Numbered from the stretch's first letter, positions 5,342 to 51,011 are shown. The stretch: DNA of 64,000 nt from a bacterium (GCA_030693205.1 JAUYBG010000006.1:4015-68014); one strand, 5' to 3'. The notes: generated by a model not told the origin, from the letters alone. Translations and numbers: made by a program.

Positions 5342-5352
5342 AAAATAAAATT

Positions 5353-5427
5353 GATTTATGAAATATGATTTAAGATTTATGAATAATTATAATTTTCCCG
5401 TAAATCGTAAATCGTAAATCGTAAATC
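5353..5427. repeat. Heptamer-built palindromic intergenic element, copy 1. The left arm gatttatgaaatatgatttaagatttatgaat is followed by a spacer and then a gtaaatc x4 tandem.
   Basis: The left arm is near-identical to the 34-bp arms at 12337 and 36621. The right arm is the reverse-complement heptamers (taaatcN) and can pair with the left arm. Confidence 0.7.
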
Positions 5428-5575
5428 TGAGCAATTCTTTTGCGGTTTCAATGTATTTATCCGAATTAATCCCCCACCCATGTAATAAAATAATTGGAAT
5501 ATTTCCATCGCCAATTTGTTTATAATTTACATTCAAATCGTCAATTTTAATTTGTTTTTCCTGCATATTTAACAT
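5387..5575 (-). pseudogene. N-terminal remnant of an alpha/beta-hydrolase. Its reading frame runs into the heptamer repeat element.
   Basis: Only 62 aa, with the alpha/beta-hydrolase N-terminal motif IPIILLHGWG. The C-terminal residues (DLRFT DLRFT) are translated from the gtaaatc tandem, so the rest of the gene is missing. Confidence 0.55.
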
Positions 5576-12336: not shown

Positions 12337-12429
12337 ATGATTTATGAATTATGATTTAAGATTTATGAATTTAACGCTGATTTATTCTTAAATCATAAAT
12401 CGTATATCGTATATCGTATATCTTAAATC
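12337..12429. repeat. Heptamer-built palindromic element, copy 2. It fills the whole mreB-proS intergenic region and starts 7 nt upstream of the mreB ATG.
   Basis: The 34-bp arm atgatttatgaattatgatttaagatttatgaat is identical to the copy at 36621. The right arm ttaaatcataaatcgtatat x3 is partly its reverse complement. Confidence 0.75.
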
Positions 12430-17590: not shown

Positions 17591-18730
17591 CTAAAAATCG
17601 CTTTTTTCTTGACCGATTATCTTCCGGACATAATCTTTAATTTCGGTTTCAAACCTTTCCCGCGAAAATTTTTCCGCATGGCGGACGATTATTTCCCGGT
17701 TATATTTTTTTTCATTTTCAACAAACCGAACGACTGCTTCGGCGATGAGCGGCGCCACCGAATGATCAAAAAAATCTCCGGTCACGCCCTCAATAATTGT
17801 TTCTTTAGCGCCTCCTTTTCGGAGCGCGATAACCGGCGTACCTTCGCTCATTGCTTCAACAGGCGCAATTCCAAAATCATCCTCTCCGGGAAAAATCAAC
17901 GCCCGGGCATTTTGATAATAACCCGGCAACTCATCCCTTTTGACAAAACCCAAAAATTTTATATTCTTTCCGGCAATGCTTTCCAAATACTCTTTCTGTT
18001 CTCCGTCTCCGATAATATACAGCGGCCAATCCAGCTTATTAAAAGCCTCAATCGCGTTATCGATCTTTTTATACGCGCTTAATCTTGAAACTATCAAAAA
18101 ATACGTGTCCTTCGAAGCTTTAGCGAAGGAGGAATCTTCGGATTTTAATGCTCTGAATTTATGCGTATCAACAGGCGGATAGATCACATCGGATTTCGCT
18201 CGATAAAACTTTGCGATCCTTTTTTGCGTTGCCAGAGAATTGGCAATAAAATAATCAACCCTGTCAGCCACTGATTTATCCCACATTCTTAAATAATGCA
18301 AGATCGGTATGACAAATAATTTTTTAATTGCCCCCAATTCGTTTTCCCTTAAATATTCAAAATACCAATCCCATAAAAATCTGGTTGGCGTATGGCAATA
18401 AGAAATATGGATCGTCTTGGGCTTGACAATTATCCCTTTGGCAAAAGAAGAAGACGATGAGATCACCAGATCAAAATCTTTCAGATCGATGGTTTCCGGC
18501 GCAATGCCCGCCAATGGCAAGATATATTTTTTATGCCGGCGCAAAAAATTCGGAAATTTTTGCAAAAATGAAGCTTTGATCTTCGCGTCGGGAAAATATT
18601 CCTTGACGATTTTTTCATCGTAAAGCAATGTATAAATCGGCGCGTCGGGCCAAATGCGATGAAAAGAAAGCAATACTTGCTCGGCGCCTCCCCAGTAAGT
18701 TAGAAAATCATGGACAATTGCTATTTTCAT
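17591..18730 (-). CDS. Glycosyltransferase family 4 (GT-B, group 1).
   Basis: The C-terminal EDDFGIAPVEAMSEGTPVIA (E-x7-E) motif is characteristic of GT4 enzymes. Confidence 0.75.
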   Translation of the reverse strand: MKIAIVHDFLTYWGGAEQVLLSFHRIWPDAPIYTLLYDEKIVKEYFPDAKIKASFLQKFPNFLRRHKKYILPLAGIAPETIDLKDFDLVISSSSSFAKGIIVKPKTIHISYCHTPTRFLWDWYFEYLRENELGAIKKLFVIPILHYLRMWDKSVADRVDYFIANSLATQKRIAKFYRAKSDVIYPPVDTHKFRALKSEDSSFAKASKDTYFLIVSRLSAYKKIDNAIEAFNKLDWPLYIIGDGEQKEYLESIAGKNIKFLGFVKRDELPGYYQNARALIFPGEDDFGIAPVEAMSEGTPVIALRKGGAKETIIEGVTGDFFDHSVAPLIAEAVVRFVENEKKYNREIIVRHAEKFSRERFETEIKDYVRKIIGQEKSDF

Positions 18731-19209: not shown

Positions 19210-19327
19210 TTTTTCACCTTCCTTTAAAGAGCTAAGTCAATATTAAGGTATTTAAAAATTTTGTCAATATATATTAAACTAATTTAAAAAATACAATTTT
19301 TATATACCACTATAATTCTATATAGAA

Positions 19328-19618
19328 TCAGATTCTATTTCCGCCGCCAATTCCGCCAAAACTCCTTCCGGTGTCGACGCAATCGGTTTCGCGCATTTTT
19401 CCATCAGAAGCAATCAATTTCAACTGTCGACAAATTGTCGATGGTTCAAATCCATCTTCTTCTTTAACTCTAATTTTCATTTTAAACCAATAATCATTTG
19501 GATCTACGCTGTCAGTCAATGCCTGAACAACATCTATGACCGAAAACCACCATTCATTATTATAGATTATTTTTCTAATTTTCTTACCTTTAAACAAAGC
19601 AATTTTTACAGTTTCCAT
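19328..19618 (-). pseudogene. BRO-N (phage antirepressor / DinD-like) N-terminal domain fragment. Its 3' end runs through the island's left direct repeat.
   Basis: The BRO-N signature is KIRKIIYNNEWWFSVIDVVQAL. It is only 96 aa, against about 250 aa for typical BRO/DinD proteins. An alternative frame over the repeat reads TPEGVLAEL, paralleling the C-terminus of the ORF at 29115. Confidence 0.55.
19348..19377. repeat. Left copy of the 25-bp perfect (29/30) direct repeat bounding the accessory island.
   Basis: caattccgccaaaactccttccggtGtcg at 19348-19377 versus caattccgccaaaactccttccggtAtcg at 29145-29174. Confidence 0.8.
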
Positions 19619-19635
19619 AATATTTATCTTATCCC

Positions 19636-19703
19636 TTGATTAAATCTTTGGAAAATTTTGCGGCGGGATTTTTAATATGAATTGATTTTTAGGATTTTTT
19701 GAA
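19636..19703. repeat. 68-bp direct repeat, copy A (its mate is at 20531-20598, about 88% identical). It lies upstream of the BRO-N start.
   Basis: ttgattaaatctttggaaaattttgcggcgggatttttaatatgaattgatttttaggattttttgaat versus the copy at 20531. Confidence 0.7.
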
Positions 19704-19729
19704 TTTCGAGAACAGTTCTCGGCAGGATT

Positions 19730-20447
19730 TCATTTTAAAAGCTGAGTTACTAGCGCCACCATCTGATCTTTTTCTTTCGGCTTGCTTTCGGCGATAAGAA
19801 TCGCCAAGGCCGTTAAAGCGTTGTCGTTGATTTTTCTTTCTCCGTTTTCCCGATACAAATAATCGTTTTTATCCAAAAAATAAACAAACATAAAAGAGCC
19901 GATGCGCTTGTTGCCATCGGAAAACGGATGGTCTTTCACGGTTAAATACAAAAGATGCGCCGCTTTTTCTTCGGTGCTGAAAATCAATCGCGCTCTGTAA
20001 TTCTTTGAATTTGCTTTTAGCTTCCAAAAGTCGTTTTTCATTTACAGCATAACCCTTAATCAAATAATCTTTAACTATCTTAGTCGCCCAAATTCTGAAT
20101 TGAGTAGCTCTTTCCGAATTTATGCGATAACCGACGGAAATAATTGCATCAAGATTATAAAACTGGGTTTTATAGATTTTTCCATCGGCGGCAGTATGTT
20201 CCAAAATGGAACTAACTGAATTTTTATTTAGCTCGGCAGTTTTAAAGATATTGCGGAGATGCTTGGTAATTGCCGGCCTTTGCGTGCCAAAAAGCAAAGC
20301 AATTTGAGATTGCGTTAACCAAATAGTTTCATTATCAAGTTTTACTTCAATTTGAATATCGCCGCCTTTGGGCTTATAGATGACAATTCCGCCTCTGTTG
20401 AATTGTTCGAGTTTTTTCTTTTTTAGCATAGTTTTTATGACTCGCAT
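19730..20447 (-). pseudogene. RhuM-family N-terminal domain fused to a Doc/Fic-type toxin domain. The gene is interrupted by a frameshift (ORFs 19869-20447 and 19730-20041 overlap in different frames).
   Basis: The N-terminal part aligns with the full-length RhuM at 28057-29061 (WLTQ..IA.LF...R..I..HL.NI, VGYR..S...TQFR.WAT). The C-terminal ORF carries the Doc-type motif HPFSDGNKRIG. The two frames overlap by about 170 nt. Confidence 0.55.
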
Positions 20448-20530
20448 TATCTTCCGTCTAATCTCTCTTCAATTTAAAATTTAATTCTCGCGAAAGATTC
20501 GCTTGAAAATTATCTCCGGCGATTTTGGGT

Positions 20531-20598
20531 TTGATTAGATCTTTGGAAAATTTTGGGTCCGGATTTTCAATATGAATTGATTTTAAAGATTTTTTAAA
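20531..20598. repeat. 68-bp direct repeat, copy B (mate of 19636-19703). It lies upstream of the RhuM/Doc gene.
   Basis: See copy A. Confidence 0.7.
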
Positions 20599-20660
20599 TC
20601 TTGTAAGCAATTCTCAAAAATATTAAAAAGCGCTTAGTGCCTCATTTCCACTTTATATTA

Positions 20661-23600
20661 TTAAGAAATAATTTTTATAATATCCTTAGTAACTAATTTT
20701 CTATCACGCTTTTCACTAATCCAATCGCTATATTTAACTCTGTAAAATACCCACCCTGCAGCTTCAAGTACACGCTGGCGTTCTTCGTCGCTTTCAATAT
20801 GAATACCGTACGCCTCGTCTATTTCGTCTTTGAAATGAGAAGGGCCATCGCACTCAACCGCAATACGCTTACCCGTATTTGTATTACTCACAACAAAATC
20901 AATCTTGAAACCGCAACTTTCAACTTGATTCTGAATTTTATAGCCGCGTTTTAGATTTGCACGCATAAGATTGAAAAATTCTTCCTCAAAATATGAATCA
21001 AATGGCTTGAGATCGGTTGAATAAAACGCAACTTCTCCATTTTCTTGCACATACTCAAGATATTTCTTGAGCCAGATTTTTTCTGGCATTTCTTGCGTAG
21101 ACAAACTAACGAAACAATGCACCTGTAATCTTGCGCGCGAAAAAGCGACATTAACTCTGCCTTTGTTTATATCGGCGCGTATATCTCCGCCCTCACCAGT
21201 TAGCGGAACATATTTGTTTTTTTGTTCAGGCGTCCTAATAACAAATGAATAAATTACAATATCTTTCTCGTCGCCTTGAATGCCCTCAATAATACTCACC
21301 TTGTAATTGTCGTCTTCTTCCTTAAAACCTTCCTTCTCAAAGAGATTGCGAATATAAGTCGCTTGAGCATTAAAGAAAGATAAAATGCCGATAGATTTAT
21401 CGCGATAGCGTTCGTCATCCCGCAACTCTTTGAATAGGTTTAATATCGCCTTTGCTTCAGCGATATTTACATTATCTGAAAATTCCTCGCTCCAATCTGA
21501 TTTTATTTCATGAACAAGCATTATGCGGTTTGTGTCTTTGTAGGTTAGATAATTACTATTGATTGAAATTAATTCTTTACCTTTAGGTTTATAAAAATAT
21601 TTATTACTAAAGCCAATCAATTCTACCGCAGAACGATAATGGTAATGTAAGGGTTTTTCCATAAAACCACGATTTTTTGCAATATCTAAAACGGACTGAA
21701 CGGCATCGCCTGTCGCTTTGATTTGTTTATCTACTGGTATTTTATATGTATGCGCGAGTTGATCAAAAAACTTATTTGATTTAAACATTATCGTACTATC
21801 GCGCATTTGCTCGCTATCGCCAACAAATAAAACTCTATTTGTGCGATACATAACCGGTAAAGTGTAAGCAACGTTGCATTGCGATGCTTCGTCTAAAATT
21901 ACGTAGTCAAAAATTCCGGCTTCAAGCGGAATAATACGGCTTGCGTCATCAAGTTCCATAATCCAAACGGGAATTAAATCCAAAATTGCATTAAAATTAT
22001 TTACATCTTTTCGGAGATTATCAAACGTCTTAAACGCTTTTTTTGATTTTCCGAAAGCTTTTGCTAACTTGTTAACTATTTGCCTAATTGTTATCCCTTC
22101 TTTCCATTTTTTAAGAATTCCTTCATTGATAATATTCTGGATATAAAGTCCAACGCGCTTAACCCGTTCCTGTTCGGTGTGCTTTAACGCAGAACCTATT
22201 TTATTAATACTGTCTGTTTTTGCCAATTTCTGTAATTCCGATTTAATTTCCTGTGTTCGTAAGATTTTATTTTTAATTTCTTCTAAATTGGCAATTGCGG
22301 TGTTGTCAATTTTTCTATCTAAAATTTCAAACTCATCATCAGAAACTCCGCAAGTACTCAATTTTTGTCGCAATTTTTCCTCGGCATTTTCCAAACATTG
22401 AATATTTTCATAGTAACAACAATGATTATAAAGACAATCGAGCGTTTTTGCTTGTTCATTCCGCGACATACTACTTATCAAAATTTTATCTATGTAATCG
22501 ATAATTTCTCGTGGCAATTTTTTTCGAACATTACCAAGCCGAAAATTGCGACTAACATTGTTAATCTTGCGAAAAAAGTTTGAATGTCGATCGTATCCAG
22601 TTTTCGCAACATCATCTCTTAATTTCCCTATGGCCTCGGCAAAATGTTCGCCATTTAGATTAAGGACAGAAAGAAGATGGTCAAGTTCTTTTTTTTCGTC
22701 GCTTCGCTCATATTTTCTGATAATTTTGCCGATTGTTTCTATCTCTGCTTTTGCATTTTTAATTTCTCGCCATTCGTCAGATGAAAAACTTCTTGCAAAA
22801 CATCCAAAATCAGAAATATCTATATCGTATTCTTTAAGTTGTAATAACTCTTGATGAAGTTGGTATATTTTTCTTTGAATAGTGATAATTTCATTAAGAG
22901 CTTCCCGATTTTTTTCTTTTTCCCCAACAATTTGATCAATTGCCGGAATTGATATGTTTTTTCCACTATATTCTACTAAATGCCTTCTTGCGTTAAATTT
23001 ATAACCAAGTTTTTCAATATGGGAACCGAGTGCACTTAATTGTGGCGCTATTCCATCTGCTTCGTCTTCTTCCCCAATTTGTGCTGAATTTGGATTGGGC
23101 AGATAGCCGAATAAATATTTTACATCAAGCTTTTTGAGTTTATCTTTTACAACTTTGAGAGCTTGCGCTTTTTGACTAACAAAAAGCACGCGATTGCCAG
23201 TAGCGGCAAGATGACAAAGTATATTTGAAATTGTTTCTGACTTACCGGTTCCAGGTGGCCCTTGAATAATCGCCCCTTTATTGCCAAGAATTGAAAGAGT
23301 GGAAAGTTGGTATTTGTCGTAGAGAAATGGAAAATATAAATCTTTTTCATGGGGAGTTTCACCCTCAACGTTTAACTCATCGTTTTGTGTCCAGCTCGTA
23401 AGTGCGGTTTTAGCAAGTTCTTCTTCTGTTAGCTGGGAGAGTTTGGCTAAATCTTCAGCAAGAAAATAATTCGCCTTTGGGCTTAAGGCAATTTTAATTT
23501 CTTCAAGCGAAAAAGATTTTTCATCAAAATTAGCGTTTTTAAGTCGTAATTGGGCTTTTATTTTGTGCCAAATTTCTTTAAAAATTAATAAATCAGTTAT

Positions 23601-24233
23601 GGGCAAAGAAAATTGCCCTTCAATTTCATATTTACCCATTTCTTCCAAAAGCTGAAAATATAAATCCTCGCCAAGTATTGGTTCCAACATTCCTATATTT
23701 ACTTGGACTTCTGGATCAACAAAATAAATAGAGTACTCTTTAGCGCCAGTTTTTTTGTTAAATTCTTGTTCTATTTTTACTGGCAATGAAAAAAGTGGAT
23801 AACGGTCAATTTTAGTTTTAACTGGTTTTTCTTCCACATTTTCCTCTTGTTCTTCTGATGAAATAATATCGCCATTGCTTTCAATGGGAATTTCAATTTC
23901 AAAATACCCAAAACTTAATATGATCTGCTTTGTGTATTGATCATTTTTATATTTGCTATAAATATCGTCTATTTTATTTGCCAGCTCTTTTTCCTTTTCG
24001 TACTCGTCCATTTCATCTTTGGGAACATCCTTTGGATCATATTTGTAAAAAGTTTTTAGATCAATCAATTCTGCGATTTTTTCATCCGTGTCTCCGTTCA
24101 ATAAACCAAGTAATCCAAAAAGTTCTGCTGGTAGAATAACAGAATATTTTTGCTGTGCCAATATCGTATGTGCTCGGGTTAATTTTATATAACCAAGACA
24201 ATACTTAATGAAATTTGAAAGGTTATTGTCCAT
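20661..24233 (-). CDS. SF1 (Upf1/DNA2-like, AAA_11/AAA_12) helicase with an N-terminal DUF4011-like region and a C-terminal DUF559-type PD-(D/E)xK endonuclease domain. Putative defence helicase-nuclease.
   Basis: LYFPF...IIQGPPGTGKSETISNI is a DUF4011-to-Walker-A junction. A long coiled-coil insert follows. Motif II is YVILDEASQ, and helicase C-terminal motifs are present. The last ~110 aa read KIDFVV...KRIAVECDGPSHF...AGW.FYR, the DUF559/Vsr-like nuclease signature. Confidence 0.75.
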   Translation of the reverse strand: MDNNLSNFIKYCLGYIKLTRAHTILAQQKYSVILPAELFGLLGLLNGDTDEKIAELIDLKTFYKYDPKDVPKDEMDEYEKEKELANKIDDIYSKYKNDQYTKQIILSFGYFEIEIPIESNGDIISSEEQEENVEEKPVKTKIDRYPLFSLPVKIEQEFNKKTGAKEYSIYFVDPEVQVNIGMLEPILGEDLYFQLLEEMGKYEIEGQFSLPITDLLIFKEIWHKIKAQLRLKNANFDEKSFSLEEIKIALSPKANYFLAEDLAKLSQLTEEELAKTALTSWTQNDELNVEGETPHEKDLYFPFLYDKYQLSTLSILGNKGAIIQGPPGTGKSETISNILCHLAATGNRVLFVSQKAQALKVVKDKLKKLDVKYLFGYLPNPNSAQIGEEDEADGIAPQLSALGSHIEKLGYKFNARRHLVEYSGKNISIPAIDQIVGEKEKNREALNEIITIQRKIYQLHQELLQLKEYDIDISDFGCFARSFSSDEWREIKNAKAEIETIGKIIRKYERSDEKKELDHLLSVLNLNGEHFAEAIGKLRDDVAKTGYDRHSNFFRKINNVSRNFRLGNVRKKLPREIIDYIDKILISSMSRNEQAKTLDCLYNHCCYYENIQCLENAEEKLRQKLSTCGVSDDEFEILDRKIDNTAIANLEEIKNKILRTQEIKSELQKLAKTDSINKIGSALKHTEQERVKRVGLYIQNIINEGILKKWKEGITIRQIVNKLAKAFGKSKKAFKTFDNLRKDVNNFNAILDLIPVWIMELDDASRIIPLEAGIFDYVILDEASQCNVAYTLPVMYRTNRVLFVGDSEQMRDSTIMFKSNKFFDQLAHTYKIPVDKQIKATGDAVQSVLDIAKNRGFMEKPLHYHYRSAVELIGFSNKYFYKPKGKELISINSNYLTYKDTNRIMLVHEIKSDWSEEFSDNVNIAEAKAILNLFKELRDDERYRDKSIGILSFFNAQATYIRNLFEKEGFKEEDDNYKVSIIEGIQGDEKDIVIYSFVIRTPEQKNKYVPLTGEGGDIRADINKGRVNVAFSRARLQVHCFVSLSTQEMPEKIWLKKYLEYVQENGEVAFYSTDLKPFDSYFEEEFFNLMRANLKRGYKIQNQVESCGFKIDFVVSNTNTGKRIAVECDGPSHFKDEIDEAYGIHIESDEERQRVLEAAGWVFYRVKYSDWISEKRDRKLVTKDIIKIIS

Positions 24234-24344
24234 AATATTACTTCTTTTTCCTTCTTAAGCTTTATTAATCGCAATCTTACCCCAATTTGGGCTTAAAATT
24301 AATGAAAAAACGGCTGAAGAGCAAAGTTACGGATTTTCTCGTAT

Positions 24345-24529
24345 TTTTCCACCAGCGCTTTAATTTTTTCTTTGGCTTGTTGTTGCGTAATTGTTTTCCT
24401 TAAACTAAACTTCTACATTATCTTACCCCAAAACCTCCATAAAATCAAATAAAAAAATCCGGCGAATTTAATATTTCACCGGCTTGTCTTTTGGCAAATA
24501 ATTCATTTCTTGCCTTTTTTCAAAATCTT
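24345..24529. repeat. ~185-bp direct repeat, copy 1 (about 98% identical to 27896-28082). It carries a TTGATT-N17-TAAGAT promoter pointing at the helicase gene, and it also encodes the C-terminus of the ATPase fragment.
   Basis: Alignment of 24345-24529 with 27896-28082 shows only about three mismatches. Confidence 0.85.
24410..24438 (-). promoter_or_regulatory. Sigma70-like promoter (TTGATT-17-TAAGAT) inside repeat copy 1, about 180 nt upstream of the helicase-nuclease ATG.
   Basis: Minus-strand read: TTGATTttatggaggttttggggTAAGAT. The same module sits upstream of the rhuM ATG (29090-29118), and with TATAAT upstream of murC. Confidence 0.5.
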
Positions 24530-24722
24530 GCCTTTGCACTACTTCGTTCATCTGTAAATATCTTTGGGCTGAAATTCTTTTTGTAGGACTATTTACCTGT
24601 TCAAGCTTTGACCCGAATCTGGTTTTACCAGCCCCGTTTGCACCAATAATTACCATATTTTTTTCAATTATTATAGTTTCTTGTTCGCTACTATTAGATT
24701 TTGGAATTTGAATATTTTTCAT
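24468..24722 (-). pseudogene. Truncated N-terminal fragment of an AAA_15/AAA_21-type ATPase (Walker A only).
   Basis: IIGANGAGKTRFGSKLEQ is a P-loop, followed by about 40 aa and then a stop. The last ~20 codons are read from the 185-bp repeat, in a different frame from the RhuM copy. A full ATPase would exceed 350 aa. Confidence 0.55.
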
Positions 24723-24867
24723 ATCTTTTTATTTTCTATAATCTTAATTTCCTCTTCTGTCAACCCATACAGCTCATAAACTTTTTGGTCAATTCTTTTT
24801 AAATTAATATTTTTAATTCGACACTCAATTTTTAAACATAATCTATTTTATACTATCATCCTAAATT

Positions 24868-25626
24868 TTATTTTGACAGTTTAATTAAAATTTTAATAAT
24901 TTCTATAATATCGTGGTTATGCCTCTTAGAACACATGGCAAAAATTTTCATTATGTCAAACAACACATCCGCATTATTTTTGTTTATTATATATTCTAGT
25001 ATATCACTATTTTTCGAAGAATGTCCTATCAAACCGGAATAATTGCTAAATGATTTAATTGGTATGCAAAAATATACCATCGGTTGAACACCCGTTGCAT
25101 ATTGTTGTTTTTGTATAGATACCTCTACTTGCGTATTGTCGGCCGTTTGAATCATAAAAAGAGTTGGCAGTTTTATACTTGTTTCTTCAAAATTCATTCC
25201 ATTAAGAACTATTTTTGAGTTATGTTCAATTGCAATTTTTTTGTCATCTATAAAATCATTATATTTTTTAATTTCCTCCAATAACTTAGTAATTTTTTCA
25301 ATTGATACCAAGCCAACTTGTATTCCATCATAAATAAGTTCGGAAAGTTCATAAAGATATTTTGTTTTGCCGTTAGCGCCGATAAAAGTTAATCGTTTTA
25401 ACCTTGTGTCTTTTTTGCCATTCACAACATCATTTACAACAGCATCGTAGCCGATTTGCCATTCAAGATATACACTCTCGTCAAAATTTCTTGTTCTAGC
25501 GGCAAAAGTATCGCCAAACTGCAAATTATTCTTTCTCGTCTTAAATCTAAATTTTCCAGAATTTGATGCGGGAATTTTTATAATTATTTCCTTATTTTTT
25601 GTAATATAATCCATATATATTTTCAA
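24868..25626 (-). CDS. Hypothetical 252-aa protein (ORF-A). A candidate restriction endonuclease or effector partner of the adjacent methyltransferases.
   Basis: No recognisable motif. It is co-directional with ORF-B with a 4-nt overlap, and divergent from the two MTase genes. Confidence 0.35.
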   Translation of the reverse strand: MKIYMDYITKNKEIIIKIPASNSGKFRFKTRKNNLQFGDTFAARTRNFDESVYLEWQIGYDAVVNDVVNGKKDTRLKRLTFIGANGKTKYLYELSELIYDGIQVGLVSIEKITKLLEEIKKYNDFIDDKKIAIEHNSKIVLNGMNFEETSIKLPTLFMIQTADNTQVEVSIQKQQYATGVQPMVYFCIPIKSFSNYSGLIGHSSKNSDILEYIINKNNADVLFDIMKIFAMCSKRHNHDIIEIIKILIKLSK

Positions 25627-25970
25627 TAATTAATTGCTTTATTTATTATTTTTTTAAATTCTTTTGTAATGTCCTTAACGGAATTGATTTTTATACTATA
25701 ATTTATTCCCGGATATTGCATATAGCTAGCACTAACAAAACCGGGCATGTTCGGTTTATCTTTTAGCGAAAAACCGACATCAAGCTGAATTCCTGATAGT
25801 GTTTTACCTCTATAATATATAACAAAAACCATTTTGTCTTCTATGAAATAGCTAACATAAATTGGAAAAACCCGATAATCTATACTGGGGCTGCTAAACA
25901 TAATAATTTGATGTAATTTATCAAAGACTAGCCATTTGTCGCCCATTTTTTTTCTTAAATCTTCCAACAT
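25623..25970 (-). CDS. Hypothetical 115-aa protein (ORF-B), translationally coupled to ORF-A.
   Basis: ATGA overlap with ORF-A. A TAAGAT -10-like box lies 12 nt upstream of its ATG. No known domain was recognised. Confidence 0.35.
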   Translation of the reverse strand: MLEDLRKKMGDKWLVFDKLHQIIMFSSPSIDYRVFPIYVSYFIEDKMVFVIYYRGKTLSGIQLDVGFSLKDKPNMPGFVSASYMQYPGINYSIKINSVKDITKEFKKIINKAINY

Positions 25971-26035
25971 ATAGTTATTTTATCTTAATCTTGCCTAAAA
26001 ATCTATTAAGCCATTTTCTCAATTGATTTTCTTAA

Positions 26036-26064
26036 TTGATTTTTTGCTTAATATTTGATATTAT
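26036..26064 (+). promoter_or_regulatory. Sigma70-like promoter TTGATT-17-TATTAT for the MTase operon, preceded by an 11-bp direct repeat (caattgatttt x2) that may be an operator.
   Basis: TTGATTttttgcttaatatttgaTATTAT lies 49 nt before the 26113 ATG. The direct repeats are at 26019-26030 and 26032-26043. Confidence 0.45.
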
Positions 26065-26112
26065 AAGTATAGAGCAGATTTTCATATTCTGCAATAATAG
26101 GGTAAAAATTTC

Positions 26113-26751
26113 ATGCAAAGTAATATTTTAAATACAATTCAAAACATTGATTGTTTGGAGGGATTTAAAATAATTCCCGACAGCTCAATTGATCTTATTT
26201 TAACAGACCCGCCCTATGGATTAAATAAAACTGGGATAAAAAATGACCACGACCTAAGTTTATTTTATTTGTCTTTGCCAGAAAGCCATAGAGTATTAAA
26301 AAATGATTCTTTTTATATCACTTTTTTTAGCACAAAATTTTTACCGGATATTTTCAAAAATAATCCTTTTCGGTATTTTTGGAATTTCATTTTATACTGT
26401 CCGAACGGAAGTGTAATGTCACCTATTGGTTTTACTAAATATATGTCCTGCGTTGTTTTTAAAAAAGGTAATCCTAAGTTGATCAAAAGAGGTAAAGATA
26501 TTTTTCTAGACACACCGGGCAGAATGATTGAACCAGATGAAGGATTCATAAACCACCCTACGCCAAAACCCAAAACATTCATAAAAGAATTACTAATGCT
26601 TTTTTCAAAAGAAAATGACATTATCCTTGATCCGTTTATTGGAAGCGGAAGTACGGCAGTCGCTTGTAAACAATTGAAAAGAAATTATATAGGTTTTGAA
26701 ATTAGCAATGATTATTGCAACTTAGCAAACGAGAGATTAAAAAAATTTTGA
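26113..26751 (+). CDS. DNA N6-adenine / N4-cytosine methyltransferase, beta-class (motif IV precedes motif I).
   Basis: DLILTDPPYG (motif IV, DPPY) appears near the N-terminus. LDPFIGSGSTAVAC (motif I, FxGxG) appears near the C-terminus. 212 aa. Confidence 0.8.
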   Translation: MQSNILNTIQNIDCLEGFKIIPDSSIDLILTDPPYGLNKTGIKNDHDLSLFYLSLPESHRVLKNDSFYITFFSTKFLPDIFKNNPFRYFWNFILYCPNGSVMSPIGFTKYMSCVVFKKGNPKLIKRGKDIFLDTPGRMIEPDEGFINHPTPKPKTFIKELLMLFSKENDIILDPFIGSGSTAVACKQLKRNYIGFEISNDYCNLANERLKKF

Positions 26752-26752
26752 T

Positions 26753-27883
26753 ATGAATAATAAACAAGAAATTTTAGGCCAATATTTTACCAAAATTGAA
26801 ATTGTCAGAAATTTGGTAGATTTAGTTTTATCAAACAAACATTATAAAAATAGCATTAAAATACTTGAACCTTCTTTCGGAACCGGAAATTTTATCAAAG
26901 CACTAAAAGAGAAGAATCTTTCCAATATTGAAGGCTGTGAAATTGACGAAGAGTTAACCAAAAATCCGTCAGATTTTTTTAATATGCCTTTTGAGAAAAA
27001 ATACGACTTAATCATCGGCAATCCGCCTTTTAGTAAATATAATTTAAAAGAAAGCTACTTTAATATAAACAAACATCTTAAATTTAACGCATTAGCTTCT
27101 GTTTATTTAACAAAAAATGAGCTAAGAAAAGATAAAGAAAAAATTGAGAACATTTTTTTGCTCAAAAGCTTAAAACATTTACAAGATAATAATTCATCTA
27201 TTGGTTTTGTCTTACCCATCTCATTTTTTATAAAAAATAGAAATAAATCCATAAAAAATGAATTATTAAAATATTTTTCTACCATTATCATTTATCAAAA
27301 CGATAAGGTTTGGTTCGATAAAAATATTCCCTGTTGTTTTGCTGTTTTTACCAATTCCGACAAACTAAAAAATAAAATTGTTTTAATATATGAAAATGGT
27401 AAAAAAAATAAAGAAGTATTTAGCATAAATAATATCCATGAAGAATTAATTCCCCAAGTTGTTTATCATAAAAACAATGGGTATATAAAAAATGACATAG
27501 GAACGCCTTTGTCGGAATTTTTTGAAACAAAAAAGATAAATATAAAAAAATCATACGAGGAAAATAATATTTCGGCAAAAAATATTCTTGAAAAAAATAT
27601 AATTCCAGAAAATAAACTCACTGAAAATTATAAAATTGCTGTCGTGAGAGTCGGAAATTCCAGTGTCGGAAAGTGTGGTTTGATAAACGAAAAAGAAGAT
27701 ATTTTAAATGATATGTTTTATATCTTTGATGTAAAAAATCAATATATTAAAAATAAACAAATAAAAGAAAATATCTGTCGTCAAATAAATAAAAATATTG
27801 ATTATTTTAGAAATATAACTTGCCGAGTTGGGAGTAAATCAATTAAAAAAGAGGATATTTATAATTTTAAAGTTAGCATTTAA
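26753..27883 (+). CDS. DNA N6-adenine methyltransferase, gamma-class (TaqI-like) with a C-terminal target-recognition region.
   Basis: QYFT near the N-terminus, ILEPSFGTGNF (motif I) and IIGNPPF (motif IV, NPPF) in gamma order. It starts 2 nt after the upstream MTase stop. Confidence 0.75.
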   Translation: MNNKQEILGQYFTKIEIVRNLVDLVLSNKHYKNSIKILEPSFGTGNFIKALKEKNLSNIEGCEIDEELTKNPSDFFNMPFEKKYDLIIGNPPFSKYNLKESYFNINKHLKFNALASVYLTKNELRKDKEKIENIFLLKSLKHLQDNNSSIGFVLPISFFIKNRNKSIKNELLKYFSTIIIYQNDKVWFDKNIPCCFAVFTNSDKLKNKIVLIYENGKKNKEVFSINNIHEELIPQVVYHKNNGYIKNDIGTPLSEFFETKKINIKKSYEENNISAKNILEKNIIPENKLTENYKIAVVRVGNSSVGKCGLINEKEDILNDMFYIFDVKNQYIKNKQIKENICRQINKNIDYFRNITCRVGSKSIKKEDIYNFKVSI

Positions 27884-27895
27884 AGCAACAATGCC

Positions 27896-28082
27896 CTTTT
27901 TCCACCAGCGCTTTAATTTTTTCTTTGGCTTGTTCTTGCATAATTGTTTTCCTTAAACTAAACTTCTACATTATCTTACCCCAAAACCTCCATAAAATCA
28001 AATAAAAAAAATCCGGCGAATTTAATATTTCACCGGCTTGTCTTTTGGCAAATAATTCATTTCTTGCCTTTTTTCAAAATCT
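27896..28082. repeat. ~185-bp direct repeat, copy 2. It overlaps the last 8 codons and 3' flank of rhuM, and contains a promoter module plus the start of a short ORF (MQEQAKEKIKALVEK...).
   Basis: See copy 1. Confidence 0.85.
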
Positions 28083-29061
28083 TTTTCACTTCCCTGTCAA
28101 AATCGGAAATATAATTTTTATCCCGCTCTTGACGATATTTTTCATATTCTTGCAAAGCTTTATCTTCCGCCTGTTTCGCGCTCACTGTGCCAGCCGAATG
28201 CAATAACTTTTTCTCTGAAATAGTCAAAAATTCATCCAATTTTGTAATCCAATCCCGCATTTTCATCAATCGACCAGAAGCGGCCTGCAATTCCGCAAAA
28301 TCAATATAGAGCGAAACGATCAGATTTAATTGATTTATTTCCGATTCGGTCAAATAATTTTTCGCAACGACAATATCGTCAGTGGTAATATAATTTCTTT
28401 TAAAACTTGTAAGCCCCATCAAAGGTTTTTTACTATCGACTCGCTGAGTGATAATTTCTGCTGCCGTATGTCCATGCACGGCAAAATGCATTTTATTTTG
28501 CACGGTAGCGAAAAATTTTTGCGTCAATTCGGCATCAATCTTATAATCGATGCTTGTCGCATAAATATCAGTCACTTTCTGATAAAACATCCGCTCACTA
28601 CTACGAATATCCCGCACGCGCTGCAATAACTCTTGAAAATAACGCGCCCTGCCACCTGCCTGTTTGAGCCGTTCGTCATCTATTGTAAAACCCTTAATTA
28701 AATATTCCCGCAATCTTTCTGTCGCCCATTGGCGAAACTGCGTTCCCTGTTCAGACCGTACACGATAGCCAACCGCCAAAATAACATCAAGATTATAATG
28801 TTTAACATCACGCGCAACTTCTCGCAAAGCTTCTTTCTGAACTATCCGGAAATTCCGGATAGTTGAATTTTCATCCAGTTCTCGTTCTAAATAAATATTT
28901 GCTAAATGTTCATTAACAGTGCGTATATCGACATTAAAAAGTTCCGCAATTAGTTTTTGCGTCAACCAAACATTTTCATCTTCAATTCTAACGCGAATTT
29001 TTTGCTCATCGCCAAAGGTTTGATAAATAACAATTTGCGGTTTTTTAATTTCCTTTTTCAT
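28057..29061 (-). CDS. rhuM: RhuM-family (virulence protein RhuM / Fic-Doc-associated) protein, full length.
   Basis: 334 aa. The N-terminal half is a paralogue of the 19869-20447 ORF. The conserved VGYRV.S..GTQFR.WAT region is present. Confidence 0.7.
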   Translation of the reverse strand: MKKEIKKPQIVIYQTFGDEQKIRVRIEDENVWLTQKLIAELFNVDIRTVNEHLANIYLERELDENSTIRNFRIVQKEALREVARDVKHYNLDVILAVGYRVRSEQGTQFRQWATERLREYLIKGFTIDDERLKQAGGRARYFQELLQRVRDIRSSERMFYQKVTDIYATSIDYKIDAELTQKFFATVQNKMHFAVHGHTAAEIITQRVDSKKPLMGLTSFKRNYITTDDIVVAKNYLTESEINQLNLIVSLYIDFAELQAASGRLMKMRDWITKLDEFLTISEKKLLHSAGTVSAKQAEDKALQEYEKYRQERDKNYISDFDREVKKILKKGKK

Positions 29062-29089
29062 AAAATTTTCTTAAACTAAACTCTATCTA

Positions 29090-29118
29090 ATCTTACCCCA
29101 AAACTCGCTTAAAATCAA
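29090..29118 (-). promoter_or_regulatory. Sigma70-like promoter TTGATT-17-TAAGAT, about 29 nt upstream of the rhuM ATG.
   Basis: Minus-strand read: TTGATTttaagcgagttttggggTAAGATtagatagagtttagtttaagaaaattttATG. Confidence 0.55.
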
Positions 29119-29519
29119 ACGAAATTAACATCGCCATCTTCCTGCAATTCCGCCAAAACTCCTTCCGGTATCGGAACCGCCTCTCGCAGTTTGGAAATTC
29201 CCGGATAACGCCAAGCGGTAATTACGACTCGCCTTTCATTGCTAACTCCATCTTGAGTTATTTTTTTATCCTGATACATCACCCAAATCTCCTGCGGATT
29301 TTTCTTGGAACCGGATTTTTTCATCACGGCAACAGTATCCGGCGCGATACCCTGTTCTTCGCGATCATGGCGCGACAAAACACTCTTTACTTTTGCGGCG
29401 GACAAGCCATAAAACATCATTTTTCTCGCAATATGACGCGTCCAAGCCAGATAGCGAGTGTTTTTAGGCATTTTAAACCCCCACACTTTTGTGTTTGCCG
29501 CGTTTATTTTATTCGCCAT
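29115..29519 (-). CDS. Hypothetical 134-aa protein. Its last 8 codons form the island's right direct repeat.
   Basis: ORF with no recognised domain. The C-terminus ...IPEGVLAELQEDG is encoded by the repeat caattccgccaaaactccttccggt. Confidence 0.4.
   Translation of the reverse strand: MANKINAANTKVWGFKMPKNTRYLAWTRHIARKMMFYGLSAAKVKSVLSRHDREEQGIAPDTVAVMKKSGSKKNPQEIWVMYQDKKITQDGVSNERRVVITAWRYPGISKLREAVPIPEGVLAELQEDGDVNFV
29145..29174. repeat. Right copy of the island-bounding direct repeat. It is also the 3' end of the ORF at 29115-29519.
   Basis: See the left copy. Confidence 0.8.
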
Positions 29520-29590: not shown

Positions 29591-30688
29591 TTATTCTATC
29601 AATATTTTTAACGTCTCCCTCGCGCATTTTTCCCAAGAAAATCTTTTGGTATTTTCGTAGCCGGCTTGAATAAGATCCTGACGCAATGCTTCGTCGCTTA
29701 GCACTTTTTCCAGAGCCATCGTAATTTCCCTAGAATTTTTCGGATCGACAAAAACCGCGCCCGCGCCCGCAACTTCCGGCAAGCAAGAAGTATTAGATGT
29801 GATAACCGGAACTCCAGCCGCTTGCGCTTCCAGCACCGGCAAACCAAATCCTTCATAAAACGACGGGAAAAGAAAAACCGAGGAATTTTTCAACAAATCA
29901 TTCTTTTCGCTTTCCGTCACATATCCTTTCAAAACAATATCCTTTTTAAATGCTGAGGCGTTTATTGCGCTGGCGATTTTTTCGAAACCAAAACCCGTCC
30001 CGCCGACCAAAATCAGTTTATTTGAAAATTGCAAATTTTTTTGCCTAAATTTATTATACGCTTCGATAATTCCCAAAATATTTTTCTTCATTTCGATCCG
30101 CCCGATATATACAATAGAACCCCTTTTATTATTTTCTGGATCTTGACTCATAATTTTTGGCTCCTGCCCTATCCCATGATAAACTACACTAATTTTTTGT
30201 ACATTTCCGCCATATAATTTCATTAGATCTTTCTTAGTATTCTCTGAAACCGCAATAATTCTCGCGGCAGTTTTGAGTGCGTATTTCGTTGACCATCGCA
30301 AATACAGACGATGCCAAAAAGGATAAAGCTCCGGAAAATATTCATATTCCAGCCCGTGAAGCGCGACAACTGATCTTTTCGGATGGATCAGGGGCAAAAT
30401 ATGCACCGGGATAAACAAAACATCAATCTTGGAATTCAACATCTCCCAGGCCAGTCTTATTTGCGTCCAGCCAAAAGGAAAAGACAAAAATTTAAGCTCA
30501 AAATTTTCCGGCAACGTTTGCAGTTCTTTTAAACGCCCGGACCTAAGCCGCGGATTCAGATATAAAATAAAGCGATGAGCCCGAGATTCCGGGATCACCG
30601 CCAAATGTTTAATAAGTTGAAAAACATATTCTTCCACTCCGGTGGGATTTTCTTTTAAAGCCGCGGAAGTATTAATGCCGATGATCAT
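29591..30688 (-). CDS. Glycosyltransferase family 4 (GT-B).
   Basis: EGFGLPVLEAQAAGVPVITS (E-x7-E) motif. 365 aa. Confidence 0.75.
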   Translation of the reverse strand: MIIGINTSAALKENPTGVEEYVFQLIKHLAVIPESRAHRFILYLNPRLRSGRLKELQTLPENFELKFLSFPFGWTQIRLAWEMLNSKIDVLFIPVHILPLIHPKRSVVALHGLEYEYFPELYPFWHRLYLRWSTKYALKTAARIIAVSENTKKDLMKLYGGNVQKISVVYHGIGQEPKIMSQDPENNKRGSIVYIGRIEMKKNILGIIEAYNKFRQKNLQFSNKLILVGGTGFGFEKIASAINASAFKKDIVLKGYVTESEKNDLLKNSSVFLFPSFYEGFGLPVLEAQAAGVPVITSNTSCLPEVAGAGAVFVDPKNSREITMALEKVLSDEALRQDLIQAGYENTKRFSWEKCARETLKILIE

Positions 30689-30691
30689 AAT

Positions 30692-31693
30692 TTACGATTT
30701 TATACTCCGTTTATAGGCATCCAGATTATCAAGCGCCACCCCTGTTCCTTTTGCCACGCAAAGCAACGGCTCTTCCGCGACACAGCAAGATACGCCCGTA
30801 ACGGTAGAAATTAAAATATCCAAGTTTTTCAACAATGCCCCGCCTCCCGACAATACCATGCCTTTGTCTATTATATCCGCCGCCAGTTCCGGAGGAGTAT
30901 CGGAAAGAACCAGTTTTATAACCTTGATGATCTCTCTTAATTCGTCGGAAATTGCTTCGGTTACTTCATTGGAATTAATTGCAATTGTTTTCGGAAGACC
31001 GCTGATCAGATCTCTTCCCTTAACTTCAAACTCGATGGGTTCTTTAACAGGAATGGCACTGCCGATCGTTATTTTAATTTCTTCGGCCGTTTGTTCGCCA
31101 ATCGCCAAATTATGTTTTTTCTTGACATAATCAGCAATAGACTGATCCAGTTTGTCTCCGCCGATTCTTACTGACGATGACGAAACAATGCCTCCCAGCG
31201 ATATCACGGCTACCTGGCTTGTGCCCCCGCCAATATCAATGATCATATTGCCGGAAGGAGTATTAATCGGTATTCCCGCGCCAATGGCCGCCAAAATCGG
31301 CTGTTTGACGATATAAGCGGCTTTTGCGCCCGCATTCATCGCCGCATCGATAACCGCGCGCCTTTCGGTGGAAGTAATTCCTGCCGGCACTCCCACCATT
31401 ACTTCCGGACGAAAAAACTGAATACGGCCGCAAGTCTTATTGATAAAATATCGGAGCATAGCTTCAATAATCCGATAATCAGCTATAACGCCATCTTTCA
31501 TGGGACGCGAAGCGATTATGGTTTCTGGGGTCTTTCCCAACATTTCCTTTGCTTTGCTTCCAACCGCCAAGATCTTATTATCATCTAAAGAAACCGCCAC
31601 TACTGTCGGTTCGTTTATCACAATGCCTTTTCTGGGAACAAAAACCAAAGTATTGGCCGTACCCAGATCAATGCCAATTTTTTTAATAAACAT
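30692..31693 (-). CDS. mreB: Second MreB-like actin-family ATPase (paralogue). The start was chosen at the internal Met that aligns with MreB N-termini; the ORF-track start at 31816 adds 41 poorly conserved residues.
   Basis: MFIKKIGIDLGTANTLVFV... followed by the full set of MreB motifs. It is a clear paralogue of the 11278-12330 gene but not identical. Confidence 0.8.
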   Translation of the reverse strand: MFIKKIGIDLGTANTLVFVPRKGIVINEPTVVAVSLDDNKILAVGSKAKEMLGKTPETIIASRPMKDGVIADYRIIEAMLRYFINKTCGRIQFFRPEVMVGVPAGITSTERRAVIDAAMNAGAKAAYIVKQPILAAIGAGIPINTPSGNMIIDIGGGTSQVAVISLGGIVSSSSVRIGGDKLDQSIADYVKKKHNLAIGEQTAEEIKITIGSAIPVKEPIEFEVKGRDLISGLPKTIAINSNEVTEAISDELREIIKVIKLVLSDTPPELAADIIDKGMVLSGGGALLKNLDILISTVTGVSCCVAEEPLLCVAKGTGVALDNLDAYKRSIKS

Positions 31694-31825
31694 AAATTTA
31701 CTTACAAAAACTTTCTTACTTTCTTTTAAAATCATAGCAGTAATCAAAAAGCAAGTCAACCTTAAAAGACTTTCAAAATAACTGAAATATGTTATAATGG
31801 CATAAACTGAACTCATTTAAAGTTT

Positions 31826-31902
31826 TGTCATGCTGAACTTGTTTCAGCATCTAAGGTAAGCTAAAAATTAGTAATAGATTCCGAAACAAGTTCGGGATGA
31901 CA
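31826..31902. repeat. Composite inverted repeat. The 28-bp arms tgtcatgctgaacttgtttcagcatcta and tagattccgaaacaagttcgggatgaca flank a 21-bp centre. Each arm carries an internal hairpin with an AAACAAGTT core.
   Basis: The arms are reverse complements at 23 of 28 positions. An equivalent arm pair occurs at 58071-58178. It sits in the divergent mreB2 / membrane-protein intergenic region. Confidence 0.7.
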
Positions 31903-32024: not shown

Positions 32025-33434
32025 ATGAAACTGATAACCAGAAGAATTCTTTTTTGTTTTTGCATTATTTTGTTCTTGATCAGCTCGCCGCTGGTTATCC
32101 TATACGCGTTTGGATTCCGCTATGACTTCGCGGAAAAAAAACTGATGCAAACGGGCATAATCTACTTAACACCCAATATTCAGGATAATATAAAGATCTT
32201 GATCAACGACAAAAAAGAGTCGGGCAAAATAAATATCAAAGGTATTTTTAAAAAAGACTTTGTGCTCTATAATTTGATGCCAAAAACCTACAACATCAAG
32301 ATCGACAAGGAAAATTACCATCGTTGGGAAAAAAATCTTGTCGTTTCGCCGGGACTTATTACCTACGCTCAGCCTTTATTATTGCCGTCCGATCCTAAAA
32401 ATAATTTGATATTCAGCGACACTGATATTGCTCTCTGGTCAATTTCCGACAAGTTTAAAAAAATATTTTATCTAAAAAGCAACGATGAAAAAACATCCGC
32501 CAATATCTATGATTTTTCAAAAAAAACATTGAGCACCTTTCCCGTTGACGCGCTTGGCGATCAATCAAAAAAATCAAGCATTGTTTCCGAAGGCTCAAGG
32601 ATCTTTTTTGCCCCTGACGGAAAAAAATTCGGCTTTATTCTGCCGGAAGAGAACAACAGAATTGTTCTATTGAATTCCGCTGAAAAAAGCATCTTGTCAA
32701 TTGCAGATTTTATTTCAAATAATAAAATCTTGGATGAGCGCTGGGATGATTCCAGCCGTTATTTCCTTTATTTAAACGATAAAGAAGAGCTTAATTTATA
32801 CGATACGACAAACGGAAAACCGAAAAAAATTCTCGAAAATATACTGGGCTTTGCCCTGAAAAACGAAAATATTTATTATCTGGATCGGAATAATCTTTTC
32901 TTTTACCGATCCTCGATCAATAATCCGCTTGAAAAACAACAGCTCTCTTACGTCCCTATGTCCATTGCTCAAAAAGCCCAAAGAATGGAAATATTGATCT
33001 CCGCTAAAAATACTTTGGCTGTAATTACCCCGGAAAAAAATCTTTTTATCGTTGATAAAAACGGCACCCCTCTCAATATTGGAAACGATATAGAAGCGGC
33101 TATATTTTCCAAAGACGGCGAAAATCTCGTTTTTAATTCCTCCAATGAAATTTTTACCTATACGCTAGGCGGCGGCCAAAAAAATCTTGTCACCCGCTTA
33201 TCTCAAAAGATCTCTAATGTCAGCTGGTATAGCGATTACGCTCATATTTGGTATTTGGCAAATCAAATTATAAAGAATATCGAACTGGACTCGCGGCCTA
33301 CTCCGAACATTATTGATTTTATCAATATTCCCAAAAACCCTGCCAATATCATCTATACTGATTCAAATAACATTTACTACGACCAGCTGGAAAATAACGC
33401 TTTATCGATTTATCAGGTTGAAATACAAAAATAA
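32025..33434 (+). CDS. Membrane-anchored hypothetical protein (N-terminal TM helix, PEGA-like beta segment, C-terminal beta-propeller-like region).
   Basis: A hydrophobic N-terminus, then a large soluble domain. No catalytic motif was seen. Confidence 0.35.
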   Translation: MKLITRRILFCFCIILFLISSPLVILYAFGFRYDFAEKKLMQTGIIYLTPNIQDNIKILINDKKESGKINIKGIFKKDFVLYNLMPKTYNIKIDKENYHRWEKNLVVSPGLITYAQPLLLPSDPKNNLIFSDTDIALWSISDKFKKIFYLKSNDEKTSANIYDFSKKTLSTFPVDALGDQSKKSSIVSEGSRIFFAPDGKKFGFILPEENNRIVLLNSAEKSILSIADFISNNKILDERWDDSSRYFLYLNDKEELNLYDTTNGKPKKILENILGFALKNENIYYLDRNNLFFYRSSINNPLEKQQLSYVPMSIAQKAQRMEILISAKNTLAVITPEKNLFIVDKNGTPLNIGNDIEAAIFSKDGENLVFNSSNEIFTYTLGGGQKNLVTRLSQKISNVSWYSDYAHIWYLANQIIKNIELDSRPTPNIIDFINIPKNPANIIYTDSNNIYYDQLENNALSIYQVEIQK

Positions 33435-36620: not shown

Positions 36621-36717
36621 ATGATTTATGAATTATGATTTAAGATTTATGAATATAATTTTCTCCGTTTCTTCCAACATTTTCTTCGTAAATCATAAAT
36701 CGTAAATCTTAAATCAG
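36621..36717. repeat. Heptamer-built palindromic element, copy 3. It begins 8 nt upstream of the rpsD ATG and sits inside the ribosomal alpha operon between rpsK and rpsD.
   Basis: The 34-bp arm is identical to copy 2. The right arm cgtaaatcataaatcgtaaatcttaaatcag is its near reverse complement. Confidence 0.75.
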
Positions 36718-36778
36718 TTTTCTTTTAAATAATATCTATCTTAACCCAATGTTAAATATTTAAATAATTATATTAAAC

Positions 36779-51008: not shown

Positions 51009-51011
51009 AAT

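Follow-up and report, generated by a model that had tools for sequence, protein, structure and literature searches.

A 25-nucleotide direct repeat at the edges of a defence island in a Patescibacterium, and how it may have arisen without an integrase

Introduction

How does a block of defence genes come to lie between two perfect copies of a short sequence, in the 3' end of a gene, when it carries no integrase? We address this question for a 9.8-kb island in a 64,000-nt stretch of DNA from an uncultivated Patescibacterium (GCA_030693205.1, JAUYBG010000006.1:4015-68014). This whole 64-kb stretch is called the window below, and positions are counted from its first letter. The island lies next to a small conserved gene and is bounded by a 25-nt direct repeat. 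An initial annotation of the window had read this arrangement as the classic signature of site-specific integration, by an element either decayed or mobilised in trans. Integration into the 3' end of a gene turned out to describe the locus correctly, but the mechanism was probably not that of classic site-specific integration. On balance, we lean towards an entry of the block by homology-facilitated illegitimate recombination (HFIR), the repeat corresponding to the donor and recipient alleles of a single gene end. HFIR combines homologous recombination at one of the two ends of the incoming DNA with a joint at 3-10 bp of microhomology at the other end (PMC3240628).

Results

The direct repeat at the island edges

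The 25-mer (CAATTCCGCCAAAACTCCTTCCGGT) occurs in two exact copies in the window, at 19348-19372 and 29145-29169, with a spacing of 9797 nt between them. As the initial annotation had stated, the match reaches 29 of 30 positions when the flanks are included. No third copy was detected in the window with up to three mismatches allowed, and the 25-mer had no match in 100 dinucleotide-preserving shuffles, in agreement with the earlier view that a chance match was very unlikely. It had also been envisaged that the 25-mer could turn out to be a dispersed multi-copy repeat, which is not so, and we thus discarded both the dispersed repeat and the chance match.

An assembly artefact (or, again, a fortuitous or dispersed repeat) is scarcely credible as the source of these junctions. 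Contigs assembled in Logan from the same run (SRR13727537) do break inside the island at its internal repeats, but only there, and three of them (L001, L090, and L091), 100% identical to the window, cross both outer junctions. As these junctions are spanned by independent contigs, they are not the artefact of one assembler. In addition, the left copy continues into a native gene tail that is also seen in a relative (see below), and the window holds two copies where none would be expected by chance.

The two copies differ in their context. The right one belongs to an intact 134-aa gene (29115-29519, minus strand), in which it codes for PEGVLAEL close to the C-terminus, whereas the left one lies inside the tail of a truncated BRO-N open reading frame (ORF) and is read there in a different frame. 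The extra CGA included in the 29/30 match belongs to the BRO-N sequence (GTC GAC). The same 25-nt stretch is 24/25 identical in the close relatives L179 and L182 (we designate comparison contigs and loci by L numbers), so that the 25/25 identity of two alleles is unremarkable.

An empty site and a displaced gene end

The gene that contains the right copy belongs to a family with 137 homologues (protein clusters), typically 121-125 aa long; representative genomes contain 227 loci that match it, and metagenomes 535. It has no match in Pfam or NCBIfam. Its AlphaFold2 (AF2) model, with a predicted local distance difference test score (pLDDT) of 82.7, consists of two helices and an antiparallel sheet, and no fold match to this model was found in the PDB at E<0.04. 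The family alignment exhibits a conserved segment, ..AWRYPGxSKP.E.IPIPEGxLxEL, followed by a hypervariable acidic tail. In the window, the last nine codons before the stop, QEDGDVNFV (29115-29144), form what we call the loaded-locus tail allele.

When the left copy and the sequence after it are read in the PEGVLAEL frame, they give PEGVLAELAAEIESDSI and a stop codon, with the tail AAEIESDSI. This is the exact C-terminus of the closest homologue of the small gene, P0001, encoded by contig L002. This contig (2703 nt) contains the core only once, and its gene order, which is glycosyltransferase (GT), small gene, ORF18808 homologue, GT, is precisely the one that had been predicted for an empty site. 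Positions 1246-1698 of L002 align with window 29598-29146 and positions 1671-2703 with window 19376-18344 (95% identity), the two matches overlapping on the one core copy. L002 is an empty site and the left copy is the displaced end of the native gene, whereas the present tail of the small gene, QEDGDVNFV, arrived with the insert. The earlier proposal that the block had inserted into this gene's 3' end is thereby borne out.

Two further features were dismissed. The palindrome next to the left repeat, which the initial annotation had pointed out, is also present in L002, where it codes for the ..ESDSI and stop region; it is thus native and not an island feature. Identity to L002 is 95% in the left flank and 85-87% in the right flank, but we dropped this asymmetry as a sign of a donor-derived right flank since, of the two GTs, the right one is the more diverged in every relative.

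A single alternative would explain the repeat, the restoration of the ORF, and the empty site equally well, namely a decayed or trans-mobilised integrative island resembling a cis-mobilisable element (CIME). In such a case a tyrosine integrase, now lost or encoded elsewhere, would have acted on attachment (att) sites, attL and attR being the 25-nt repeats and attP having carried the replacement end of the small gene. Perfect repeats at both edges, the restoration of the ORF by a tail brought in with the element, the displacement of the native end, and an empty-site relative all fit this explanation. The island is also visibly decayed, three of its genes being broken, which makes the loss of an integrase gene plausible, and the genome was searched over 64 kb only. 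We nevertheless consider a CIME-like origin unlikely, because of the structure of the left junction, the nested repeat, the relatives, and the recombinase searches described below.

The joint between BRO-N and the repeat

The BRO-N gene is cut after codon 83 (..DCVDT, T83) and runs straight into the core. Its full-length homologues (140-165 aa) continue as ..DGKMRETDC[AV][DN]TEG[IV]FRIIQSIPSPKAEPFKRW.., and the lost codons T-E-G-V-F resemble P-E-G-V-L in the small gene. At the DNA level, the full-length homologue L183 (GATACGGAGGGTGTTTT) and the small gene (GATACCGGAAGGAGTTTT) share an exact ACCG within a patchy match of 15/18 positions. We slid the 19-mer of the small-gene junction along the 462-nt L183 gene: the best of the 444 positions was nt 244, which is the codon at which the window BRO-N is cut. 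The best local alignment of the whole BRO-N and small genes also fell at the junction in both of them. The truncation of BRO-N exactly where its lost TEGVF resembles PEGVL suggests a microhomology joint.

This junction is difficult to reconcile with the action of an integrase. The island-side arm on the left is BRO-N coding sequence and not a non-coding att arm, so that a CIME-like element would have a truncated coding sequence as its left arm, and the similarity of BRO-N to the small gene at the cut would be left as a coincidence. Moreover, the predicted circular joint reads ..CVDTGRSFGGIAGRWRC and then a stop, instead of the conserved TEGIFRIIQ.. of BRO-N homologues; a circular form would not restore BRO-N.

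A nested repeat with the same anatomy

A second direct repeat is present within the island. It is 186 nt long (24344-24528 and 27897-28082, with two substitutions and one 1-nt indel between the copies) and brackets a type II restriction-modification (R-M) block together with an ATPase remnant. In copy B, the 3' end of the RhuM gene is genuine and the dead gene that follows is cut by the R-M block. In copy A, the truncated ATPase is joined to the final 27 nt of RhuM, and the terminator-like hairpin lies at 24482-24459. The inner and outer left junctions are thus alike, in that at each of them a defence gene has been truncated and fused to the 3' end of whichever gene lies upstream of the insert. 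Under a CIME-like origin, this repeat would need a second, different site-specific system. Under HFIR, the R-M block could have entered the island in an earlier or later event of the same kind, of which the 186-nt repeat would be the trace.

A promoter-like motif, TTGATTTTA-N6/7-GTTTTGGGGTAAGAT, was observed on the minus strand at 24274-24310, 24420-24456, 27973-28009, 29090-29126, and 50980-51016, that is five matches compared with about one expected, below the threshold of a generic sigma-70 scan. Its copies are located upstream of genes of the island and, in one case, of a housekeeping gene. The match at 29090-29126 precedes RhuM and overlaps the stop codon of the small gene. We had considered the motif (TTGATTTTA..GGGGTAAGAT) as a cassette recombination site and ruled this out, since the copy at 50980 precedes a housekeeping Mur ligase gene. 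It is for this reason best read as an ordinary promoter of the lineage, and is probably the lineage's own promoter consensus.

A defence hotspot in relatives

Close relatives in which the small gene is 77-88% identical to that of the window carry other genes directly after it. L179 encodes a type I HsdM followed by a KilA-N gene. In L180 the small gene is followed by a type III Mod, and in L181 by a partial ORF without Pfam match but with the same N-terminal sequence start as the Mod of L180. In L182, two unknowns, a Schlafen-AlbA2 protein, an NYN nuclease, and a fragment are followed directly by the left GT. Three lineages are empty at this position; in L003 and L004-L010, the two GTs are separated by the small gene only. 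The synteny MreB, GT, small gene, variable region, GT, holB was recovered in L002-L010 and L182. As the relatives carry differing cargo (type I R-M, type III R-M, and Schlafen/NYN) at the same spot, we consider this locus a defence hotspot. Two further loci, L011 and L012, were rejected as occupied sites because they merely exhibit a different housekeeping synteny.

The island of L182 lies fully within its contig, and no repeat of at least 12 nt was detected. Since it reaches the left GT without a repeat, cargo turnover at this site does not as a rule produce att-like repeats, which again disfavours a CIME-like origin. An 86-aa ORF of L182 (4891-5151, MKFKFSQNLDYQKDAIDAIVGIFD..), adjoining the left GT, has no family match; it may be a gene fragment, in which case the L182 island would contain decayed genes too.

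The tails of the small gene at loaded loci (window and L179-L182) can be aligned at the DNA level through window position 29122 or 29088, whereas alignments with the empty loci L002, L003, and L004 end at the core (29146-29161). The window tail thus appears to be a natural allele linked to loaded loci. Across these loci, we observed that the small-gene tail appears to co-vary with the loaded state of the downstream hotspot. A leader of about 60-90 nt follows the stop codon of the small gene in L179, L181, and L182, with a terminator-like hairpin evident in the latter two, and its counterpart in the window is located after RhuM, within the 186-nt repeat.

ORF18808 was found only in the window and in L002 (95% aa identity). 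In L003, L004-L010, and L182, it is missing from the interval that separates the small gene from the left GT, so that it is itself an accessory gene of the same hotspot; it has no family match. The earlier statement that all surrounding genes are housekeeping must be amended in this respect. The rest of the window encodes ribosomal, cell-wall, and tRNA-synthetase genes.

Recombinases, transposons, and viruses

No recombinase domain was detected in the island ORFs of at least 80 aa, in agreement with the initial annotation, or among the roughly 45 ORFs tested across the window, and the intergenic gaps of the island are too short for a recombinase remnant. The absence of a recombinase from island and window counts against a CIME-like origin, as does the lack of any other repeat-flanked occupied site. 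A repeat of the small-gene 3' end was found in none of the about 170 family loci scanned (80 from genomes, 80 from metagenomes, and others), and we thus rejected a recurrent att site. The 25-mer is also absent from the viral contigs of IMG/VR, and we rejected a phage or satellite origin. Identity of RhuM to its relatives in viral contigs does not exceed 65%. All these searches for the att core were made in representative collections.

Elements that integrate without an integrase in cis also deserve consideration. An integrative mobile element exploiting Xer (IMEX) would account for the missing integrase, and the repeat (25-29 nt) comes close to the 28 nt of a dif site; a transposon that produces a long target-site duplication could likewise be envisaged. 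Both are very improbable here. The core has no dyad symmetry and is located inside coding sequence, and the cumulative GC skew is monotonic across the window, so that no replication terminus is located here. No inverted repeat longer than 8 nt exists between the island ends (the best being 8 nt), and no transposase was found among the profile-searched ORFs. We discarded both models given the missing dif-like structure and inverted repeats.

The initial diagnosis of a classic site-specific signature is thus not sustained: BRO-N is cut at a look-alike codon 83 without any att arm, the anatomy recurs in the nested 186-nt repeat, L182 has an island devoid of any repeat, and viral contigs lack the core.

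Gene content of the island and its surroundings

Genes were called by profile searches with Pfam, PADLOC, and NCBIfam (Table 1). The accessory nature of the content, noticed previously, is confirmed, the cargo being entirely related to defence. Gene content and GC together indicate a defence island that is partly intact and partly decayed. GC is 0.23-0.39 overall in the block, with about 0.33 in the helicase gene and 0.23-0.31 (the lowest of the window) in the R-M block, vs 0.39-0.45 in the flanks. The block formed by R.PabI and two methyltransferases (MTases), at 23-31% GC, is the most recently acquired-looking part of the island.

Table 1. Features of the island and its immediate surroundings (position in the window; strand; annotation or remark)
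Feature	Position	Strand	Remark
GT4 glycosyltransferase, left core flank	17591..18730	-	
ORF18808, 133 aa	18808..19209	-	Function unassigned; outside the repeat-bounded block
Left 25-nt copy with native tail and stop	19318..19372 (repeat 19348-19372; stop 19318-19320)	-	Displaced 3' end of the recipient gene
BRO-N fragment / PDC-S13	19328-19618 (BRO-N part 19373..19618)	-	Pfam Bro-N, PADLOC
RhuM-N + Fic/Doc gene (PDC-S23)	19730..20447	-	Frameshift splits it into two overlapping ORFs
Superfamily 1 (SF1) helicase (AAA_11/AAA_12) with C-terminal MTES_1575/DUF559 nuclease, 1190 aa	20661..24233	-	Intact
Inner copy A of the 186-nt repeat	24344..24528	-	Last 27 nt of RhuM, terminator-like hairpin, promoter-like motif, dead-gene start
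84-aa remnant of an AriA/PtuA/GajA-type ABC ATPase	24468..24722	-	N-terminal ~65 residues
Type II R-M block as a whole	24868..27883		
R.PabI-like restriction endonuclease	24868-25626	-	Pfam RE_R_Pab1, 6.6e-23
115-aa ORF	25623-25970	-	Function unassigned
N4/N6 MTase (type II)	26113-26751	+	
Second type II MTase	26753-27883	+	
Inner copy B of the 186-nt repeat	27897..28082	-	Genuine RhuM 3' end, terminator, promoter-like motif, first 17 codons of the dead gene
RhuM-family gene (PDC-S05)	28057..29061	-	Intact; Pfam 1.9e-111, PADLOC 2.7e-140
Small conserved gene, 134 aa	29115..29519	-	Intact; Patescibacteria-wide family, function unassigned
Right 25-nt repeat copy	29145..29169	-	Last conserved codons (PEGVLAEL) of the intact small gene
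GT4 glycosyltransferase, right core flank	29591..30688	-	
MreB, beyond the right GT	30692-31816	-	

The BRO-N fragment covers only positions 2-86 of the 286-position PDC-S13 profile, and the RhuM-N + Fic/Doc gene is a pseudogene. The ATPase remnant matches the PADLOC profiles of AriAB, PtuA, and GajA at their N-terminal positions only. The helicase-nuclease resembles PDC-S37, Hhe, and ProA with scores far below their cut-offs, and we regard it as a candidate defence protein. The initial annotation had counted two unknown ORFs; one of them is the R.PabI-like restriction enzyme. An 85-nt direct repeat (19636-19720 and 20531-20615, 84% identical) was observed in the 5' leaders of the BRO-N fragment and of the RhuM-Fic pseudogene and may be a regulatory region shared by defence genes with DNA-binding domains.

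Elsewhere in the window, a dispersed intergenic repeat family (TTATGAATTATGATTTAAGATTTATGAAT, then short tandem units of the AAATCGTAAATCGTAAATCG type) is present at three loci adjoining housekeeping genes (5351-5429, 12337-12424, and 36621-36724), with copies up to 97% identical. A 28-nt inverted pair (31826-31853 and 58151-58178, 93% complementary) has hairpin-like arms (ATGCTGAAC..GTTTCAGCAT), of which one is found immediately upstream of MreB and the second where a Mur ligase gene ends. Large ORFs include 152-4957 (+, 1601 aa), 32025-33434 (+, 469 aa), 38307-39965 (-, 552 aa), and 42229-44256 (-, 675 aa), the last three of which have no Pfam match.

Discussion

A possible history of the island

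In the history that we favour, HFIR, the donor DNA would stem from a related strain in which the hotspot was loaded beforehand. The donor segment would have comprised the small gene with its QEDGDVNFV tail, a promoter, RhuM, more cargo, the helicase-nuclease, RhuM-Fic, and a full BRO-N gene. One end would have been resolved by homologous recombination, either in the conserved small gene or in the right-hand flank. At the other end, an illegitimate joint would have linked D-T-E-G-V-F of BRO-N with I-P-E-G-V-L of the recipient small gene, 55 nt before the stop codon. The last 55 nt of the recipient gene (core plus AAEIESDSI and stop) would then stay at the left edge, while the complete donor allele would form the right copy. 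An illegitimate joint within the recipient small gene would account for the survival of these 55 nt, and the repeat would be 25 nt long because it spans the distance from this joint to the point at which the hypervariable tails diverge.

The donor-type tail and leader allele does exist in the population, as attested by the alignment of the window with the loaded loci L179-L182. We infer the donor haplotype as well as the route by which the DNA entered, which was probably natural transformation. The com genes are conserved across the Candidate Phyla Radiation (CPR), to which belongs a Saccharibacterium shown to undergo natural transformation in a comEC-dependent manner (PMC10633639). Neither com genes nor recA are located within the 64-kb window.

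Several points weigh against HFIR. The donor haplotype itself (small gene, tail, RhuM, and so on up to a full BRO-N) was found in no collection searched: the exact RhuM, helicase, and BRO proteins occur in the source sample only, and RhuM does not follow the small gene in any relative. The exact microhomology, ACCG, is short and surrounded by patchy similarity, and it was determined with L183, a homologue of only 79% protein identity that serves as a proxy for what BRO-N has lost. With a value of 13, the raw local-alignment score does not exceed that of shuffled sequence, so that only the coincidence in position carries weight. The recombinase search covered 64 kb of the genome. Finally, the about 170 comparison loci are mostly distant, with a different synteny, and have little bearing on this core.

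The same elements could have been assembled in a different order. Instead of a linear fragment, a circle could have integrated in the manner of a Campbell insertion, by a RecA-dependent single crossover in the 25-nt homology, the microhomology event being in this case the circularisation joint. Recircularised fragments that undergo a single crossover are known to duplicate the homologous segment (PMC3240628), and the 186-nt inner repeat is long enough for efficient recombination. Two rare events would be required, however, vs one for linear HFIR, and 25 nt is, in terms of minimal processing segments, at the lower limit for a RecA crossover. We thus find this variant distinctly unlikely, all the while recognising that linear HFIR and the integration of a recircularised fragment by one crossover lead to identical products and are indistinguishable here.

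Comparison with known systems

HFIR products described in Acinetobacter, S. pneumoniae, and P. stutzeri (PMC3240628) also combine one homologous with one microhomology junction and place foreign DNA next to an anchor without the need for a recombinase. These laboratory events typically involve about 1 kb, whereas the insert is 9.8 kb here. The present case would further differ in that the donor's own allele of the anchor end creates an att-like repeat, and in that the process is deduced from its product.

The locus also recalls the core defence hotspots cDHS1 and cDHS2 of P. aeruginosa, for which exchange via the conserved flanks by homologous recombination has been proposed (Johnson et al. 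2023, PMC10250203). As in these hotspots, a fixed site between core genes harbours variable defence cargo of low GC, and hallmark mobile-element genes are missing. In contrast to cDHS1 and cDHS2, one edge bears a scar in which a 25-nt repeat and a truncated gene are combined with what remains of the recipient gene end, the organism is an uncultivated Patescibacterium, and the C-terminal tail of the anchor gene was swapped together with the cargo.

Tyrosine-integrase islands, which insert in the 3' ends of tRNA or protein genes, resemble the present one in the length and position of the repeat, the replaced gene end, and the empty site. Unlike them, the island has no integrase, att arms, or recombination directionality factor, and its core does not recur at other islands. 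CIMEs are att-flanked elements devoid of integrase, derived from integrative and conjugative elements (ICEs) or integrative and mobilisable elements (IMEs) and known from streptococci. They share with this island the direct repeats at the edges, the insertion in a gene 3' end with conservation of the ORF, and the lack of an integrase in cis. Here, in contrast, the representative collections searched yielded no cognate element that combines an integrase with this core, the truncated left arm appears to be joined by microhomology, and the nested repeat differs in both length and sequence.

Significance

We thus view this locus as a fresh example of known phenomena, a core defence hotspot combined with homology-assisted illegitimate acquisition. 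Direct repeats at island edges within gene 3' ends are routinely taken as proof of att sites, and the same signature may arise without an integrase, provided that the donor DNA carries its own allele of the anchor and that its far end is joined at a microhomology. This calls for caution in equating direct repeats with att sites. Rapid turnover of cargo is documented at this position, including type I, II, and III R-M systems, RhuM, a helicase-nuclease, and Schlafen/NYN proteins. Given that Patescibacteria have few recognised mobile elements and a conserved competence machinery, the locus offers a concrete and testable case of immunity-gene gain.

More speculatively, and with considerable doubt on our part, the last conserved codons of the small gene could be a dedicated anchor for the integrase-free exchange of defence cassettes, each carrying its own tail and terminator-promoter leader. 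Their gain would be driven by transformation and proceed through homologous or homology-assisted recombination, the att-like repeats seen here being occasional by-products. If this were true and general, anchor exchange would be the main way in which the streamlined, mobile-element-poor genomes of the CPR build and renew their immune loci.

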